13,495 nt of DNA, taken from positions 1 to 13,495 of the forward strand of contig JAWBTW010000018.1 in the NCBI GenBank assembly GCA_039000165.1, read 5' to 3'. This DNA is from Candidatus Aenigmatarchaeota archaeon. GTDB lineage: Archaea > Aenigmatarchaeota > Aenigmatarchaeia > CG10238-14 > SCSR01. The notes under the pieces are model-generated. The model was not told the DNA's origin and searched no databases. It saw only the letters and a program-made list of their open reading frames with translations. Positions 2,344 through 10,801 of the stretch are shown here, in pieces. The position numbers and the translations under genes were made by a program. Position 1 is the first letter of the stretch; each line of letters starts with the position of its first letter.

Positions 2344-3807
2344 TTACTTTAGAAGCTTCTTCACTACTTTCATAACTTCCTTTGCTTCTATTTTTCCTCT
2401 AACTTTGCTCATCACCAAGCCCAAAGCCTTTTCAAAAGGCATGTCTTTTGTAACAATGCTTTTGGCTATTTCTTTTAGCTCACTAACTTTTATTGGTTTT
2501 AAGTCAAGCTCTTTTACCGCAAAGCTCACGCTTTTATCAGGGTTTTTTGCTAAGTAAGCTAGAACTTGAGGAAGCGCTTCTTTTATCAGTTGTTTTCTAG
2601 CCAAAGCATCAAAAACTTCAAGGAAATGCTTCTCAGTTAAATTCTCAACGTTTACCTTTTCCCTTTTCTCCAAATCTTTAAGAGTGGAAACGAAAGTGTT
2701 TGCTACTATGCTAGGCTCGACTCTTTTCTTTTCAACAATTTTTTCAAAAATTTCTAGATAATCAGACCTTATTATTTGTTTTGCCAAATCATCAGAAAGC
2801 TTAAGCTTTGTTTTAAATCTTGCTAATTTTTTTGTCCAAGGTTCAGGCAGACTTTTCTTTATTCTTTCTATTAACTCTTTCGAAACTATTATCGGAGCAA
2901 TGTCAGTTTCAGGGTATAAGCGAGCAGCTCCTGGTAAAGGTCTTAAGAATTTTGTTGTAGCATCTGGCAAAGCAGCTCTTGTTTCTTCTTCAATTTTTTG
3001 CCCTTTTTCTATTAGTTCTAGCTGCCTTTTTACTTCTAGCTCGATAACCTTTGCTATTAAACCAAGCTCCTGCACCCCTTTAATTTCAACCCTTTTTCCT
3101 TTTTTTATGCTAACGTTCAAATCCTGCCTTATGGTTCCTATTCCACGCTTAACTTTTCCTGTTGACTTGCAAGTTAACCCAATAAAATAAGCAATCTCCT
3201 GGATTTCTTCAGGAGAAAAACCTTCTAATAAGCCTGTACTTATCTCAACCAAAGGAATACCAAGCCTGCTTAGCCTATAGGTTACATTACCATCTTCTTC
3301 CTTAACTATCGCTGCTGCATCTTCTTCCAAACAAACATGCTTTATCTCAATTTTCTTTCCCTTATACTTGAGAAAACCATCTTTTCCAATTATTGCAGTT
3401 CTTTGAAAACCCATTGGGGTTGAGCCGTCTATAACAGTTTTCCTCATGACATGAATTTCTTCTGGAATAGAGCAGTTTAAAAGCAAAGCAATTTGTAAAG
3501 CAATTTCTAAGGCTTCTTGGTTTAAAGGTAAAGGCGGTTCTTCATCCAAATCGATTAAGCAAACTTCATTCCTAAAAACCTGGTAATAGAAAGTTCTGTT
3601 TCTCAAGTATTCATACTGAGCAGCTACATCAACTTCTCCTAACTCACTTTGAACAGGATGCTGCTTTCTTTTAATTATTGCTACAGGCTCTTTTTCTTTC
3701 ATCTCAGTCGAGCAATTGCAAAAAAGCTTATGCTTAGTGTTAAGCTGAACATGAATTTCCAAACCAGCCTTCAAACCAATTTTTTTATAATTTATTCCTT
3801 CACTCAT
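2344..3807 (-). CDS. gatE: Glu-tRNA(Gln) amidotransferase subunit E, short form (487 aa) without the AspRS-like insertion domain
   Basis: GatE motifs GLKAGLEIHVQL, SELGEVD, DEEPP, MRKTVIDGS..GFQRT, CLEEDAA, RLGIPLVEI, KVKRGIGTIRQDLNVSI, RVEIKGVQ, RPLPGAARLYPETD; adjacent to gatD. ATG at 3807 preferred to TTG at 3813: it overlaps the gatD stop (ATGAGTGA) and has GGAGAG upstream. Confidence 0.95.
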   Translation of the reverse strand: MSEGINYKKIGLKAGLEIHVQLNTKHKLFCNCSTEMKEKEPVAIIKRKQHPVQSELGEVDVAAQYEYLRNRTFYYQVFRNEVCLIDLDEEPPLPLNQEALEIALQIALLLNCSIPEEIHVMRKTVIDGSTPMGFQRTAIIGKDGFLKYKGKKIEIKHVCLEEDAAAIVKEEDGNVTYRLSRLGIPLVEISTGLLEGFSPEEIQEIAYFIGLTCKSTGKVKRGIGTIRQDLNVSIKKGKRVEIKGVQELGLIAKVIELEVKRQLELIEKGQKIEEETRAALPDATTKFLRPLPGAARLYPETDIAPIIVSKELIERIKKSLPEPWTKKLARFKTKLKLSDDLAKQIIRSDYLEIFEKIVEKKRVEPSIVANTFVSTLKDLEKREKVNVENLTEKHFLEVFDALARKQLIKEALPQVLAYLAKNPDKSVSFAVKELDLKPIKVSELKEIAKSIVTKDMPFEKALGLVMSKVRGKIEAKEVMKVVKKLLK

Positions 3808-5125
3808 ACTCAATTCTCTCCGAGATTTCGCCAGCTAAATTAGAAAGCATGAGCTCTTTTATTTTTTCCATTTTCTTTTCATGCCCCAAAACAAACATCA
3901 GCTTAACATAAGCAACTTCAGGAAGCATGTCACTTGCAAAAATTACCCCTCTTTTCAAAAGCTCCCTTAAATTATGGTAAATTGTTGGATGAGTTCTTCC
4001 GTACAAGCATTGCGAAGCTATAACAACAGGAATTCCTAGGCTTACAGCTTTTTCAATTTTTGGTAATAAAGAATTTTCTCCTAAAGTAGGAACATGTCCC
4101 AAGCCTGTTGCTTCTACAACAAAACCCTTATAGCCTTTTTCTAAGTAGAAATCAAAAATTTCAGGGTTAAGACCAGGATAACATTTGATTAAAGCAACTT
4201 TTCTCTCAATCTTTTCATCAACCTTTACTTTTCTCTCACTTCTTTTCCTGTAATTTTGGTTCAAAATTTCAATTTTTCTGTTTTCCCAGTAAATTTTTGC
4301 TATTGGCAATTCATTAATTGCCTTAAAAGCATCTCTTCTACTAGCATGCATCTTTCTTGCTCTTGTTCCCCTTATGGCAAAGCAATAATCATCATTTATA
4401 CTCCCATGCATTACTATGCAAACCTCAGCTACATCAGAATTTGCTACAAAGTTTGCTGCACAGCTTACATTCATTACAGCATCACTACTTGGCCTATCGC
4501 TAGACCTTTGCGACCCAACTAAAGCTACAGGGCAAGGCAAATCTTTCAGCATAAAGCTTAGAGCAGCAGAAGTATAATGCAAAGTATCTGTGCCGTGAGT
4601 GACTATTACTCCTTTTGAGCCAGAGTTAATTTCTTTTGCTACTGCTTTTGCTATTTCTACCCATTTTTCTGGAGTAATATCTTCGCTCATTATATTCATA
4701 ACTTGCTCGACTTTTATGTTTGCAATTTCTTTTAACTCAGGAATTTGTGCTACTATGTCGCGAGGAGAAAAAGAAGCATACACTCCTCCGCTTCTATAAT
4801 CTACTCTGCTTGCAATAGTCCCTCCTGTTCCAAGAATAGAAATCAAAGGAAGCTTTTTGTCAAATATTAAAACTTTTTCTTTTTCTACTTTGGGCTCCTC
4901 AAGCCTCCACTCTTTTTTTACTTTTTCTATCTTTACTCCTTTCTCAAGCTTGATTCCAATATTGTATCCGTTATCCAACTTGAGAATTAAGCAAGAAGTA
5001 TTGCCAAGCTCTATTCTTGGCATTAAAATTCCTTCATACTTTTTTCCTTTTTTGGAAACAACTATTCTATCTCCAACTTCAATTTTTTTACTTTTAAGTA
5101 GTGACTCTATTTCCTTAGAATACAA
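3800..5125 (-). CDS. gatD: Glu-tRNA(Gln) amidotransferase subunit D (asparaginase-like glutaminase)
   Basis: GatD N-terminal domain (YEGILMPR...LKLDNGYNIGI), catalytic TGGTIASRVDY and HGTDT, plus GSQRSSDRPSSD, RKMHASRRDAF, GLGHV, DMLPEVAYVKL. TTG start preceded by AGGTGA. Confidence 0.97.
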   Translation of the reverse strand: MYSKEIESLLKSKKIEVGDRIVVSKKGKKYEGILMPRIELGNTSCLILKLDNGYNIGIKLEKGVKIEKVKKEWRLEEPKVEKEKVLIFDKKLPLISILGTGGTIASRVDYRSGGVYASFSPRDIVAQIPELKEIANIKVEQVMNIMSEDITPEKWVEIAKAVAKEINSGSKGVIVTHGTDTLHYTSAALSFMLKDLPCPVALVGSQRSSDRPSSDAVMNVSCAANFVANSDVAEVCIVMHGSINDDYCFAIRGTRARKMHASRRDAFKAINELPIAKIYWENRKIEILNQNYRKRSERKVKVDEKIERKVALIKCYPGLNPEIFDFYLEKGYKGFVVEATGLGHVPTLGENSLLPKIEKAVSLGIPVVIASQCLYGRTHPTIYHNLRELLKRGVIFASDMLPEVAYVKLMFVLGHEKKMEKIKELMLSNLAGEISERIEYE

Positions 5126-5177: not shown

Positions 5178-6548
5178 TTAAAGAGCTAGGTATTTCTCCA
5201 ATTCCCAAGGATGAACTTGTTTTCTGTAACTATCCCACTGAGCTTTAAGTATTTCATATACCTTCTCTTTCACAAACCTACCTAAAGCTTTTTCTACTAT
5301 TTTGCTTTTCCTCGTTAGCTCCATAGCCTCTCCTAAGGATTGAGGCAAAGTTTCTATATAAAATTTCTTGAGTTTAGAATCGTCAAAATGATAGACATCT
5401 TCTTCTACTGGCTGAGGAGGTTCGAGCTTTTTTTCTATTCCATACAAACCAGCTTCAAGCATTACCGCATAACCAAGAAAAGGGTTCATCGAAGGGTCAG
5501 GCCACCTTGCTTCTAGTCTAGTTTCTTTCTCCTTTCCAGGAAAATATTCTGGCTTTCTTATTAAAGCTGACCTGTTTCTGCTTCCCCAGCAAATATAAAC
5601 AGGAGCCTCATAACCAACCACTAGTCTTTTATAAGAATTAACAGTAGGGTTAGTTATTCCAACTATTTCTTTTACACATTTAAGCTGTCCGGCAAGAAAG
5701 TGTCTTGCTAAATCAGAAAGATGATAACTATCTTTTTCATCAAAGAAAAGGTTTTCTCCATTCCTCATTATGCTTTGATGAGTATGGGCTCCTGAGCCGT
5801 TCACTCCGTAAATTGGTTTTGGCATAAAACTTGCAAACAACTCATTTTCATAACTTGCAACCTTAACGCAAAGCTTGTAATTTATAAAATCTATAGCCGC
5901 TTCTAAAGCAGGTTTATGCTTGTAGTTTATTTCATATTGACCTTGGGAAACTTCATGATGCTCTTTGACAACATTTACGCCTAGTTTTTCCATGTAGTCT
6001 ATGGCTTTATTTAACGCTAAGGTTGTTTTGTGAAGAGGGGCATAATCAAAATAGCCATACCTGTCAGTTTTTAGGGGAGTGGCTGCAATATCATCTTTCA
6101 TTTCAAAAAGAAAAAACTCTATCTCTGAAGCAAAGTTAGGAGTTGTTCCTTTTCCAAGTTTTTCTTCAAGCCTTTTCTCACAATTTTTTAAAACATAAAT
6201 CGGGTCGCCCTCAAAAGGAAATCCTCCAGGCCTCAAAACTTCGCACAAAAATCTTGCTTCTTTAATTTCGTTGATTCTCCAAGGAAAAATTCTGAAAGTT
6301 GAGATATGTGGCTTTAAAACTAAATCGCTTTCTGCAATTCTTACAAAACCCTCAACAGAAGAGCCATCAAAGCCTAAACCATTCTCTACATATTCCTTAA
6401 AATTTTCCAGGTTTTCTTTCGTTTTTGTTGGCACGCTCACGCTTTTCAAATTACCAACTATATCAACAAATTGAAAATGAACTCTTTCGATCTTTTCTCT
6501 TTTAACCTCACTAACTATATCTTCTTCTGTTACAATTTTTTCGTTCAC
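5178..6548 (-). CDS. glnA: Glutamine synthetase type I (GSI-alpha-like)
   Basis: FDGSS, EIEFFLF, HHEVSQGQYEI, FMPKPIYGVNGSGAHTHQS, NSYKRLVVGYEAP, NRSALIR and RLEARWPDP motifs; metal- and substrate-binding Glu/His/Arg residues appear intact. GTG start. Confidence 0.97.
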   Translation of the reverse strand: MNEKIVTEEDIVSEVKREKIERVHFQFVDIVGNLKSVSVPTKTKENLENFKEYVENGLGFDGSSVEGFVRIAESDLVLKPHISTFRIFPWRINEIKEARFLCEVLRPGGFPFEGDPIYVLKNCEKRLEEKLGKGTTPNFASEIEFFLFEMKDDIAATPLKTDRYGYFDYAPLHKTTLALNKAIDYMEKLGVNVVKEHHEVSQGQYEINYKHKPALEAAIDFINYKLCVKVASYENELFASFMPKPIYGVNGSGAHTHQSIMRNGENLFFDEKDSYHLSDLARHFLAGQLKCVKEIVGITNPTVNSYKRLVVGYEAPVYICWGSRNRSALIRKPEYFPGKEKETRLEARWPDPSMNPFLGYAVMLEAGLYGIEKKLEPPQPVEEDVYHFDDSKLKKFYIETLPQSLGEAMELTRKSKIVEKALGRFVKEKVYEILKAQWDSYRKQVHPWELEKYLAL

Positions 6549-6657
6549 GTTACTTTTTTTCTCACTACAAATATATAAGTTTTAGCTTAAAAATTTGAAC
6601 AAAAATCCAAAAATTTTTATATTTGATTAACAAATATTCAAAAAGGTGAATAAAAAA
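6549..6657. promoter_or_regulatory. Divergent glnA/lrp promoter region
   Basis: Minus-strand TTATATAT (6571-6578) lies ~22 nt before the glnA GTG (leaderless geometry); plus-strand TTTTATAT at ~6615-6622; SD AGGTGA at 6644-6649; two imperfect TTTG...CAAA inverted repeats. Confidence 0.6.
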
Positions 6658-7101
6658 ATGGAGCTAGACAAAACAGACGTTAAAATAATTAAGCTTTTGC
6701 TTTCAAACTCAAGACTTTCCTTTAGAGAAATAGCAAGGCATTTAGGTTTATCCGTAGGGACAATTATAAATCGAGTAAAAATTCTAGAAAGCGAGAAGAT
6801 AATTAAAGGCTATTCAGTTCTTTTGGATCATGAAAAAATTGGTTATGAGCTTACAGCAATTATAGAAATAACAGTTTCAAAAGGCAAGCTTTTGGAAGTT
6901 GAAAAAGAAATAGCAAAATTTTCTAATGTATGCGCAGTATATGACATTACTGGTTTGACAGATGCCTTGATAATAGCCAAGTTTAAGAAAAGGCAAGAGC
7001 TTAGCGACTTTGTTAAAAGCTTGCTAGCAATGCCAAACGTGGAAAGAACAAACACTCATGTAGTTTTGACAACTATTAAAGAAGATTTTAGGGTTGTTTA
7101 A
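6658..7101 (+). CDS. Lrp/AsnC family transcriptional regulator
   Basis: N-terminal HTH (LDKTDVKIIKLLLSNSRLSFREIARHLGLSVGTIINRVKILESEKIIKGY) plus RAM domain (VYDITGLTDALI...NVERTNTHVVL). ATG 6658 has AGGTGA 8 nt upstream; GTG 6646 is an alternative start. Confidence 0.95.
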   Translation: MELDKTDVKIIKLLLSNSRLSFREIARHLGLSVGTIINRVKILESEKIIKGYSVLLDHEKIGYELTAIIEITVSKGKLLEVEKEIAKFSNVCAVYDITGLTDALIIAKFKKRQELSDFVKSLLAMPNVERTNTHVVLTTIKEDFRVV

Positions 7102-7131: not shown

Positions 7132-8760
7132 GTGGAAAAAGTAGTCTTAGCTTTTTTAGTAGTTTTGGCTGTTGGTATATTAGCAGGCATAGTACTTTAC
7201 TTCCTATATCCTTCTGTTAACACTTCTGATTTGCTAACCAAAATTTTTGAAAAAGCAGAAAAAGTTAATGAAATAGGAATTTCTTACTCCCTTTCGCTTA
7301 GTTATTACTCTGGAAGTTTAGAGAGAACAACTTCTGGAAGTTTAGATTTCATTTACGCTAACGGAAACCACAAAAGTTTAATAAAGATTGAAAGCTCACC
7401 ATACCTTTATTTTTCTTCTTCAGAACTCGCTAATTATTATGGCAAATATGAACTAGAGATTTATTCTATACCAGAAGGTAGCATTGCTTGCACAAAAACT
7501 TCTATAATAAACCCAACCTATTCTTGTGAGGAGTTCAATCCAGTTAAGATGATAGCATATCCTTTGGACATTGGCCATCAAACCAAGAATTTGAAAGAAT
7601 TGGTAGAGAAAAAGATTGCTTCCGTTTCTTATCTTGGGGAAAAAGAATTTATTAACAGAAAATGCGATTATTTCAAGTTTAAAATCGATTTGAAAAAGCT
7701 TTCCCAAGAATACCAGCCAGAATTTTTATCTAGCTATACCAATGCAAACTATACAGTTTATAGTTGTTATGATGAAGAAACAGGCTTTCCTTTATATTAC
7801 TCTTTTGAAATGGTGAGCAATTCTTCTTACGGTAGTTATTCTTATGTCTCAGGTCTTAAGGGTGAATATGAAGCAAAAAGCTTAGCGTTTGATGTTGACG
7901 AAACGCAAATAAGGCTTCCTGTTCCCTTAGAAAAAGTAACCTGGCTTCCAAACTTCGAGATAATCGAATCCTACTGCGACTTAAATTCTAACGAAGTAAA
8001 AATTGCAATAGAAGCACTTAAAAACATGCTTGGTGGTGAAGCCAATTTAACGTTAAAATACTCAACTTACGGCACGAGTGGTGACATATACATCACTTCT
8101 TCCTATGCTTTTAACGGCTCTTATTCTGTTTTCGTTAATCCAGAGAACGATAATTGGGGTGGCGAAGAAAATTACATATACCAAACAATAGACTTTGGTA
8201 ACAGAGGAAAAATAAAGTGGAGATGGATGGTAGACGAAGATGCTTGCTGCTACGGGTTTAGATACCTTTCTTATTGGTTAGACGGTACAAGAAGAAAAGT
8301 TTTGGATTTCCGTGAGGCTGAGAAAGGAAAATGGTACGAATATACGCTTGAACTTAATGGCACTCATAAGATAGGAATAGGAGTTTATTCTGCTTTGGAC
8401 GGAAATAATGACTGGGATGCTGCTATTGATTATATTGAGGTAGAAAAAGACGGAAGCAAAACAATTTACAATTTTGAAGATGGAACTTTTCAAGGCTGGG
8501 AAAAGTACAATAGCTACGGATACAAAACATCAAGTGTTTCTGCAAGCTCTTCCTTTGAAGGAGCTAAGAAAGGGGAGGTTAAAATCCTTAACTTTACTTT
8601 ATCCTCTCCTCTAAAGAGAAATGAATCTTACACAATCTATTTAGAAATAAACAAGGTTAAAAAAACTTCTTATTGTTACACTTCTGAACCACGCATTACA
8701 GTTACAGGTTTGTTTACAGAAATTTTGAAAAAAATAATGAACATAACTCAAGCTACTTAG
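7132..8760 (+). CDS. N-terminally anchored extracellular mosaic protein (LolA/LppX-like beta region; Ig-like domain with inserted CBM-like jelly roll)
   Basis: N-terminal hydrophobic helix VVLAFLVVLAVGILAGIVLYFLY; S/Y-rich; multiple sequons and Cys pairs; YLGEKEFINRKCDYF...CYDEETGFPL pattern; CBM-like motifs AFNGSYS, IDYIEV, NFEDGTFQGW. Domain names are inferred from motif resemblance only. Confidence 0.75.
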   Translation: MEKVVLAFLVVLAVGILAGIVLYFLYPSVNTSDLLTKIFEKAEKVNEIGISYSLSLSYYSGSLERTTSGSLDFIYANGNHKSLIKIESSPYLYFSSSELANYYGKYELEIYSIPEGSIACTKTSIINPTYSCEEFNPVKMIAYPLDIGHQTKNLKELVEKKIASVSYLGEKEFINRKCDYFKFKIDLKKLSQEYQPEFLSSYTNANYTVYSCYDEETGFPLYYSFEMVSNSSYGSYSYVSGLKGEYEAKSLAFDVDETQIRLPVPLEKVTWLPNFEIIESYCDLNSNEVKIAIEALKNMLGGEANLTLKYSTYGTSGDIYITSSYAFNGSYSVFVNPENDNWGGEENYIYQTIDFGNRGKIKWRWMVDEDACCYGFRYLSYWLDGTRRKVLDFREAEKGKWYEYTLELNGTHKIGIGVYSALDGNNDWDAAIDYIEVEKDGSKTIYNFEDGTFQGWEKYNSYGYKTSSVSASSSFEGAKKGEVKILNFTLSSPLKRNESYTIYLEINKVKKTSYCYTSEPRITVTGLFTEILKKIMNITQAT

Positions 8761-9913: not shown

Positions 9914-9961
9914 CAATTAACATTTGTGCTACTTATATTTCAAACTTTCTAATTTTTATTG
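9914..9961. promoter_or_regulatory. 48-bp divergent promoter, probably leaderless in both directions
   Basis: Central CTTATATTTCAAA (9932-9944) is ~20-25 nt from both ATGs; no SD on either side. Confidence 0.45.
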
Positions 9962-10801
9962 ATGAAGATACTCGAAATCTATAAAAAAAGTTTAGCAGAT
10001 TCTCTCAAGTTTAAAAGAATTTTTCCTTTTTTTACGCTCTACTTCATTTCTTCTTTCGTTTCTCTTTTCTTTCTTTTGCCACTAATAAGCATTTTACCAA
10101 ACTTTTTAACTTTAAAATTAACTCAAGAAAACCTTAATCTAATTCTTATAAACTCTTTAATACTTGTGGCAATTTCTTTTATTGTTTTTGTTTTCAACTG
10201 CTGGCTTTCAGGAGCTTTAGTTTATGATATCTGGAGAAAAGAAGGTTTAAACGCTGGATTAAAATTCTCAAAAAAACTTTTACCTCAAATCTTAGGTTTA
10301 TTCTTTTTTCTAACTTTCATCAACCTTTTTCTCTATTTTTTTGGAAGTTTTGGCTTGCTCCTAAGATTTCTTGTAAGCTTTATTTTCCTTCTTTCCTTGC
10401 CATCAATAGTTATAAACAGAGAGGACTTCCTTGAAGCTATGAAAAGAAGTTATTCGCTAGTTATTAAAAACCTTTTGACATCTTTTCTATTTTGGCTTTT
10501 TCTCTATCTAATCTATTTTTCCATCCTTTTTTCTTCATTTTTCCTTGTAATTCTTTCACTTTCACCTCTTTTCTCTCAAATAGTTTTTGTTTATCAAATC
10601 TTCTCAACTTACGGCGAGCTTTCGCAGGCTGGTTTAATTCAAATTATCGGTTTAATAACGAACAACCCCGAAAGAATAACAGTAGCTTTAGCTGTTCTTT
10701 CCTTTTTCTTTTCTTATTCTTACATTTTCCTAACAACAGCAAAAACTCATTATTTCCTTTTCCTTACAAGAAAAAAACTTATCTCTTCTAAACAATCTTA
10801 A
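9962..10801 (+). CDS. Multi-pass integral membrane protein of unknown function
   Basis: About six F/L/I-rich hydrophobic segments; PSIVINREDFLEAMKRSYSLV amphipathic linker; 4 nt upstream of ABCE1. ATG 9962 (TTG 9959 alternative). Confidence 0.8.
   Translation: MKILEIYKKSLADSLKFKRIFPFFTLYFISSFVSLFFLLPLISILPNFLTLKLTQENLNLILINSLILVAISFIVFVFNCWLSGALVYDIWRKEGLNAGLKFSKKLLPQILGLFFFLTFINLFLYFFGSFGLLLRFLVSFIFLLSLPSIVINREDFLEAMKRSYSLVIKNLLTSFLFWLFLYLIYFSILFSSFFLVILSLSPLFSQIVFVYQIFSTYGELSQAGLIQIIGLITNNPERITVALAVLSFFFSYSYIFLTTAKTHYFLFLTRKKLISSKQS

Follow-up and report, generated by a model that had tools for sequence, protein, structure and literature searches.

A short archaeal GatE without the aspartyl-tRNA synthetase-like insertion, and evidence that the domain was lost secondarily

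The window considered here, a stretch of 13,495 nt (contig JAWBTW010000018.1), encodes both subunits of the archaeal amidotransferase GatDE, with the E subunit in a short form that is the subject of this analysis. It forms contig C18 of a genome that totals 783 kb over 25 contigs, with 91.6% completeness and ∼33% G+C. Close homologues are labelled Candidatus Aenigmatarchaeota in databases, and the sequencing runs that bear the gene are hot-spring metagenomes. Long, canonical GatE carries an insertion resembling aspartyl-tRNA synthetase (AspRS), which contains the GAD domain and is the feature separating GatE from GatB, the related subunit of GatCAB, according to the structural literature (PMC2943598, PMC2330236). 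The features of the window that concern this enzyme are as follows.

2344–3813, minus strand: gatE, short form, 489 aa with the TTG at 3813 as start and 487 aa with the ATG at 3807, two codons on
Domains of the gatE product: cradle (kinase/transamidase), helical and YqeY-like tail domains; AspRS-like/GAD insertion absent
2977–3027, minus strand: junction RQ-LELIEKGQKIEE-ETR, residues 263–279 counted from the TTG (261–277 from the ATG)
3800–5125, minus strand: gatD, glutaminase subunit, 441 aa, with the Pfam domains GatD_N, Asparaginase and Asparaginase_C

The gatD gene lies directly upstream of gatE, and the two overlap by 14 nt with the TTG start or by 8 nt with the ATG start. Its product scores 565.8 bits against the NCBIfam model GatD NF003217 (cut-off 310), residues 14–439 covering profile positions 2–416 of 420. 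The neighbouring protein exceeds the cut-offs of both NCBIfam GatE models (NF003107, 570.4 bits for a cut-off of 456; TIGR00134, 506 bits for a cut-off of 319.55), and all six GatB models stay below theirs, the best reaching 189.7 bits for a cut-off of 338. GatE models above cut-off, GatB models below and an adjacent gatD together identify the window protein as GatE. Each GatE model matches in two stretches. The first aligns query residues 7–270 with profile positions 4–266 of 630, and its end falls at query residue 270–272 and profile position 266 for profiles of 622–630 positions.

Pfam recognizes GatB_N (15–316) and GatB_Yqey (355–488) in the window GatE, and gives no match to GAD (PF02938) at E ≤ 0.01. 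Aligned with the GatE chain 2d6f_C from M. thermautotrophicus, the protein covers chain residues 2–269 and 383–611, with ∼130 residues missing between them; aligned with 1zq1_C from P. abyssi, it covers residues 4–271 and 396–626. The junction occupies the site where long GatE has ∼126–138 extra residues. In a wider alignment, the span between query positions 255 and 290 comprises 30–37 residues in every short form and 146–199 in long ones. A Pfam search for GAD over the contigs of the genome gave no match, and the search for a detached insertion domain in the genome gave a best E-value of 0.015 with a hidden Markov model (HMM) of 128 GatE insertion segments and E-values of ∼1 or worse with tblastn. 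The window GatE is thus confirmed to be without the AspRS-like/GAD insertion. The original prediction, made from the sequence alone, had described precisely this, namely a 487-aa GatE coupled to gatD and devoid of the GAD insertion, and Pfam, NCBIfam, the 2d6f_C alignment and the overlap with gatD agree with it; GAD appears neither in the protein nor as a stand-alone domain in the genome. Bases 2977–3027 also translate as that prediction had it, with RQ joined to ETR by 12 residues (261–277 from the ATG).

The junction is crossed with 0 gaps by contigs assembled from other runs, which stem from three studies: X4 record 13 (2603–3132), X8 record 18, and X12 record 9 (2767–3072). No insertions or deletions are listed in the contigs bridging it. 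X8 record 18 spans the whole gene with 37 differences. X12 record 9 is a 306-nt contig from a metatranscriptome (RNA) library, which is no proof of transcription. Because these independent contigs are free of gaps and 98 of the top 120 database homologues are short, the junction is not an assembly collapse, a possibility raised when the short gene was first noticed. X8 also contains a 7640-nt contig (record 19) in which short conserved pieces of the gene are matched (window 2989–3389), spread over 789 letters versus the window's 399; it is probably the long-form gatE of a co-occurring relative in the same hot-spring run.

Short GatE is not rare. The 98 short proteins among the 120 best homologues measure 452–513 aa and are without PF02938; the other 22 measure 615–636 aa and 21 of them contain it. 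Of 201 genomes drawn from all over the phylum, which homologue names identify as Aenigmatarchaeota, 198 give a GatE match and about 85 carry the short form, as counted by hand from rows with one match running through the junction. In 95 of these genomes the Pfam GAD model finds a match, a count that is an imperfect proxy for long GatE in both directions, and short forms were therefore counted from the GatE matches. Some GatE of ∼590 aa (family f27) yield no GAD match. Conversely, GAD matches in the phylum are not always GatE, as illustrated by genome G193 (loci L056 on contig C37 and L057 on C74), where a short GatE occurs alongside a 631-aa bacterial-type AspRS carrying GAD. Both short and long forms occur within families f1, f3, f7, f9, f17 and f19. 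In the window's own family f1, where 56 of 61 genomes give a GatE match, long forms are confined to genera g6, g7, g9, g16 and g121 (13 genomes). Outside the phylum, short GatE occurs in Woesearchaeota-labelled and Hydrothermarchaeota-related records; one record labelled Woesearchaeota and two metagenome-assembled genomes (MAGs) labelled ‘Methanobacteriota’ contain it. The ESM Atlas contains a cluster of GAD-free GatE whose commonest label is Nanobdellota, a lead only. In genus g24, the short GatE L053 (genome G070) is only 47–48% identical to the long L054 (G021) and L055 (G063), both of which have a divergent C-terminal tail without the conserved G..M.KVRGK stretch; this mixture suggests gene replacement.

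The connector itself resembles that of GatB. Twelve residues separate RQ from E[TV]R in 4/4 GatB and in 17/24 diverged short GatE; position +3 is Leu, +7 Gly and +10 Val/Ile in GatB and many short GatE, and distant short forms resemble one another in the junction motif LIxxGKKVxxEVR. The GatB-like spacer length and the Gly and Ile positions noticed in the original prediction are therefore real. They do not testify to an uninterrupted ancestral segment. Connector lengths across short GatE are 7, 8, 11, 12 and 14. The window gene and three of its kin have 12 residues (LELIEKGQKIEE and similar), a relative 89% identical to the window gene has the 8-residue connector LSLAKVEE, and others have 7; Gly is absent from both of these shorter types. 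Lengths of 7/8 and 12 are interleaved within one genus, and family f1 as a whole varies between 7, 8 and 12. Long GatE already has both flanks: its insertion is preceded by RQxxLL... and followed by ...GVPxETR. In the comparison of the short P0128 with the long L061, the best breakpoint takes 4 residues from the N-flank and 8 from the C-flank (8/12 identical); in three other short/long pairs it lies at ∼9+3 and is weakly determined. Breakpoint fitting failed or was mislocated in 4/12 pairs and was weak for most others, and on this footing the breakpoints appear to differ between lineages. Given flanks shared with long forms, best-fitting breakpoints that differ and a changing connector length, the GatB-like junction is not evidence of ancestry. 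The mode of 12 residues is read instead as the length that best closes a helix-to-strand turn, i.e. as a structural constraint. The AlphaFold2 model places a helix at residues 250–269, a loop at 270–276 and a strand at 277–281, and the block has a predicted local distance difference test (pLDDT) score of 95–96.

Phylogenies were built after removal of the junction columns and rooted on GatB of the same class; three proteins of intermediate type (P0126, P0204 and P0228) and three likely fragments (P0239, P0246 and P0253) were left out. Short forms are nested among insertion-bearing GatE in four trees. A FastTree phylogeny of 167 rows contains 20 changes of state, at least 12 of which are forced by well-supported branches; an IQ-TREE phylogeny (LG+C20) of 57 rows contains 17, at least nine of them forced; and a tree of 47 rows that includes named records (L076 being dropped for its over-long frame) contains nine, at least eight of them forced. 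An approximately unbiased (AU) test rejects a single clade of all 24 short rows (p 0.000444, difference in log-likelihood 683). In the named-record tree, the short P0128, L059 and L060 group within a clade of Hydrothermarchaeota long forms supported at 98%, and P0128 shares 63–68% identity with Hydrothermarchaeales long forms versus 49% with the window protein. In the same tree, the short P0145 pairs with the long P0183, beside a Thermoplasmatales record, and no sequence is nearer to P0145 than P0183, whether in the N half (74.5%) or in the C half (48.6%). The nesting of short forms among long ones and the rejection of a single short clade support a secondary, recurrent loss of the insertion and not an ancient relic, and in the sampled archaeal gene trees the domain would have been lost independently at least eight times. 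The original prediction had offered two readings, a relic or a precise secondary loss; nesting and the AU test favour the second, and nesting contradicts the first by the prediction's own yardstick.

The AlphaFold2 model of the short GatE is confident (pLDDT 93.2, predicted TM-score 0.86), and the best Foldseek matches by E-value are the GatE chains 1zq1_C and 2d6f, followed by GatB chains. The Mg ligands of M. thermautotrophicus GatE are His15, Glu157 and Glu184, mutation of which inactivates the enzyme (PMC2330236). They align to H21, E163 and E190 of the window GatE, and among 42 short and 18 long GatE the first two are invariant and E190 is at least 90% conserved. In the tail (GatB_Yqey 355–488), only A463-x-G465 of the GatE tail motif is kept, as judged by eye, and G465 is at least 90% conserved. 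The single class-Ic synthetase of the genome is an archaeal glutamyl-tRNA synthetase (GluRS), and no glutaminyl-tRNA synthetase (GlnRS) was found in this 91.6% complete genome; 44 of the ∼85 genomes with short GatE have no GatB match (hand tally). With the Mg ligands kept, a confident fold, no GlnRS and GatB often not found, the short GatDE is very probably a working Glu-tRNA(Gln) amidotransferase.

In such an enzyme, GatD would free ammonia, taking Gln or Asn as its source, the GatE cradle would phosphorylate the Glu on tRNA(Gln) and then amidate it, and the tail domain would read the tRNA's D-loop. Published work assigns tRNA recognition to the cradle (A1–U72) and the tail (D-loop) (PMC2943598, PMC2330236, PMC9499178, PMC2811023). 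As the catalytic and tRNA-reading parts lie outside the lost domain, catalysis and tRNA choice would be kept. The same body of work describes a concave pocket formed by the insertion and the cradle, onto which GluRS is docked in models (PMC2943598, PMC2330236), a tRNA-independent GluRS:GatDE complex, which the insertion would permit, with a dissociation constant (KD) of 40–100 nM (PMC2943598), and a modelled clash of the insertion with class II non-discriminating (ND) AspRS (PMC2943598, PMC2330236). In early archaea, the insertion may also have established GatDE as the enzyme for glutamine (PMC2943598). The pocket, which is proposed to dock ND-GluRS without tRNA and sterically exclude AspRS, has probably been lost from the short form. 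If docking is lost, Glu-tRNA(Gln) would be handed over in a tRNA-mediated manner or by free diffusion, and loss of GluRS docking is, we infer, the likeliest functional consequence; the altered GluRS association suggested in the original prediction is thus a reasonable possibility. A complex prediction of GluRS with the GatE cradle (residues 3–335) gave a score of 0.00, which says nothing on binding either way.

The tRNA complement was also inspected. Rfam gives 43 tRNA matches in the window genome. In a candidate on contig C3 (G000:C3:61614-61709, minus strand), the acceptor end is A1–U72 and the T-arm is of the kind usual in archaeal tRNA(Gln). Extra sequence breaks up the anticodon arm, and two small introns, placed by eye, would give the anticodon CUG; ARAGORN calls it a tRNA(Ser) with one intron. 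When pairs of segments were excised from this candidate by brute force, ARAGORN returned almost any anticodon, and the exercise is uninformative.

Collectively, we hold it highly probable that the window gene is a working GatE whose lineage deleted the GAD insertion, a short helix-loop-strand connector closing the gap. Several points weigh against this reading. The activity, the specificity and the loss of GluRS docking proposed for short GatE are all deduced from sequence. GluRS measures 549–561 aa in both short- and long-GatE lineages, with no visible co-adaptation. In the 91.6% complete genome, tRNA(Gln), tRNA(Asn) and tRNA(Asp) all escaped identification by ARAGORN, so that the check for A1–U72 was not a proper one. 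The junction check is based on Logan contigs instead of raw reads and demonstrates that the junction is present, without excluding rare variants. In the AU set, the long rows were picked partly as nearest neighbours of short rows and are a sample, not a census; this choice cannot create false sister pairs. A careful tree of family f1 unites the long forms in one clade (95/87) and leaves the short ones as an unresolved set, and one deletion may explain this family. Lastly, polyphyly in the gene trees could in part reflect recombination inside gatE and not separate deletions.

The alternative that survives best develops this last point. It supposes a single ancient deletion, the junction of which spread through gene transfer together with homologous recombination within gatE, the flanks following those of the recipient. 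The similarity of LIxxGKKVxxEVR across distant short forms would fit such a history, as would the places where GatE departs from taxonomy (in g24, G070 versus G021 and G063) and the six families that hold both forms. We consider it unlikely nonetheless: in the clearest pairs both halves of the gene point to one long sister, which argues against a transferred junction; best-fitting breakpoints (4+8 versus ∼9+3) and connector lengths differ by lineage; and the short forms concerned, at 45–50% identity, are too diverged for easy homologous exchange.

A change of function is distinctly less plausible. In this scheme, already put forward in the original prediction as a relaxed specificity, the short GatDE would also amidate Asp-tRNA(Asn), the AspRS-excluding insertion being gone. 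It draws on the modelled clash with ND-AspRS mentioned above and on 9 of the ∼85 short-GatE genomes that showed neither GatB nor asparaginyl-tRNA synthetase (AsnRS) (hand tally). However, the window genome (G000) has a gatC-gatA-gatB row beside an ND-type AspRS on contig C2 (gatB 594 bits), together with AsnRS (C2) and a second AspRS-type gene (C7), so that two ND-type AspRS are counted against the scheme; the C2 loci (L001, L003, L004, L008 and L058) lie at ∼34700–36000 and 70100–74950. Across the 201 genomes of the phylum, GatB is found in 99 and AsnRS in 103. GatB occurs in 41/85 short-GatE genomes versus 58/116 others, and neither GatB nor AsnRS is found in 9/85 versus 9/116 (hand tallies); the nine short-GatE genomes are 82–90% complete in eight cases and 91% in one. 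Among the 201 genomes, short GatE thus has no link with absence of GatB or AsnRS. Moreover, the cradle and tail, to which tRNA choice is assigned in the literature cited above, are both kept. The window genome carries both routes to Asn-tRNA, i.e. gatCAB with ND-type AspRS, plus AsnRS; the three other genomes of the same genus in the phylum sample, one of which has a GatE 99% identical, give no GatB match.

The third alternative is a relic, that is, a GatE that never gained the insertion and keeps the uninterrupted GatB-like segment of its ancestor. The 12-residue spacing and the similar Leu, Gly and Val positions in 4/4 GatB and many short GatE speak for it, and the GatE tree, when rooted on GatB, is not resolved at its base. 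Against this, short forms are tip-level sisters of long ones with long outgroups (P0145/P0183 and P0174/P0219), P0128/L059/L060 lie inside Hydrothermarchaeota and a single short clade is rejected, so that on these trees a relic would require many separate gains of the same homologous domain at one site. Close kin with connectors of 7–8 residues devoid of Gly, and RQxxL and VPxETR flanks already present in long forms, go in the same direction, and a relic appears very improbable. An artefact or decaying gene, by assembly collapse or as a pseudogene, is a negligible prospect, with no evidence found for it and, opposed to it, an open frame, gap-free contigs from three studies, 98/120 short best homologues, catalytic residues that are invariant or nearly so and a structure predicted with high confidence.

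Compared with known systems, the short GatE is an established enzyme in a variant that has lost one domain. It resembles canonical GatE (2D6F and 1ZQ1; NF003107 and TIGR00134) in phmmer scores (E 2.7e-111 and 1.2e-107), in its cradle, helical and tail domains, in its Mg ligands and in its pairing with gatD, but is without the ∼130 residues that match 2d6f_C ∼270–395, i.e. the AspRS-like insertion. It resembles GatB of GatCAB (3IP4_B, 3H0L_B and 3AL0_B) in architecture, in its length of ∼480 aa and in the 12-residue RQ...ETR connector, with TM-scores of 0.63–0.69 that equal or exceed those to GatE chains; it differs from GatB in an identity of only 20–27%, in having gatD and not gatA/gatC as partner, and in the presence of a separate true gatB in the genome. 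The short GatE of databases (Aenigmatarchaeota, Woesearchaeota-labelled and ‘Methanobacteriota’ MAGs) have lost the same domain at the same site, whereas the window gene belongs to the family f1 clade, with a connector of 7, 8 or 12 residues. In Nanoarchaeota, NEQ245/NEQ396 represent another rearranged amidotransferase in a small-genome archaeon, yet there the gene is split in two and not shortened (PMC3655853). No prior description of an insertion-less GatE was found in the full-text literature, the structural and evolutionary papers of 2005–2008 and supplements lying outside the search. Public annotation already labels the short proteins GatE.

A wider generalization, which we advance tentatively and regard as somewhat doubtful, is that the insertion is a dispensable accessory, deleted at least eight times at different breakpoints and converging on the 12-residue connector of GatB, with each loss pointing to a lineage in which the tRNA-independent GluRS:GatDE transamidosome was abandoned. 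If this is true, close short/long pairs such as those of genera g1 and g6 in the window's family would be ready material for studying the role of the insertion. The domain is treated as a hallmark of GatE and as the part enabling GatDE to bind GluRS without tRNA and shutting AspRS out (PMC2943598). Should large archaeal groups, many without GatB, do without it, the domain would not be needed for making Gln-tRNA, and a comparison of short with long enzymes, as nature provides them, could test the roles proposed for it. The return to a GatB-length connector time and again also illustrates how structural constraint can steer the loss of a domain. For annotation, neither length nor the GAD domain tells GatE from GatB.

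The genes around gatDE include two further features.

5178–6548, minus strand: glnA (glutamine synthetase), with Pfam Gln-synt_C (E 5e-105) and Gln-synt_N
6646–7101, divergent from glnA-gatD-gatE: Lrp/AsnC-type regulator

The gap between glnA and gatD is 52 nt and the two genes share a strand. That glnA and gatDE form one operon is only inferred from this arrangement; with the divergent Lrp/AsnC-type regulator, they may constitute a glutamine-supply operon for the amidotransferase. Elsewhere in the window, ORFs of 542 and 280 aa (7132–8760 and 9959–10801) have no Pfam or NCBIfam match. An ORF of 780 aa with an open 5' end occupies positions 1–2343; its matches are limited to an MG2 domain and weak Ig-like hits, and it may encode a surface protein.

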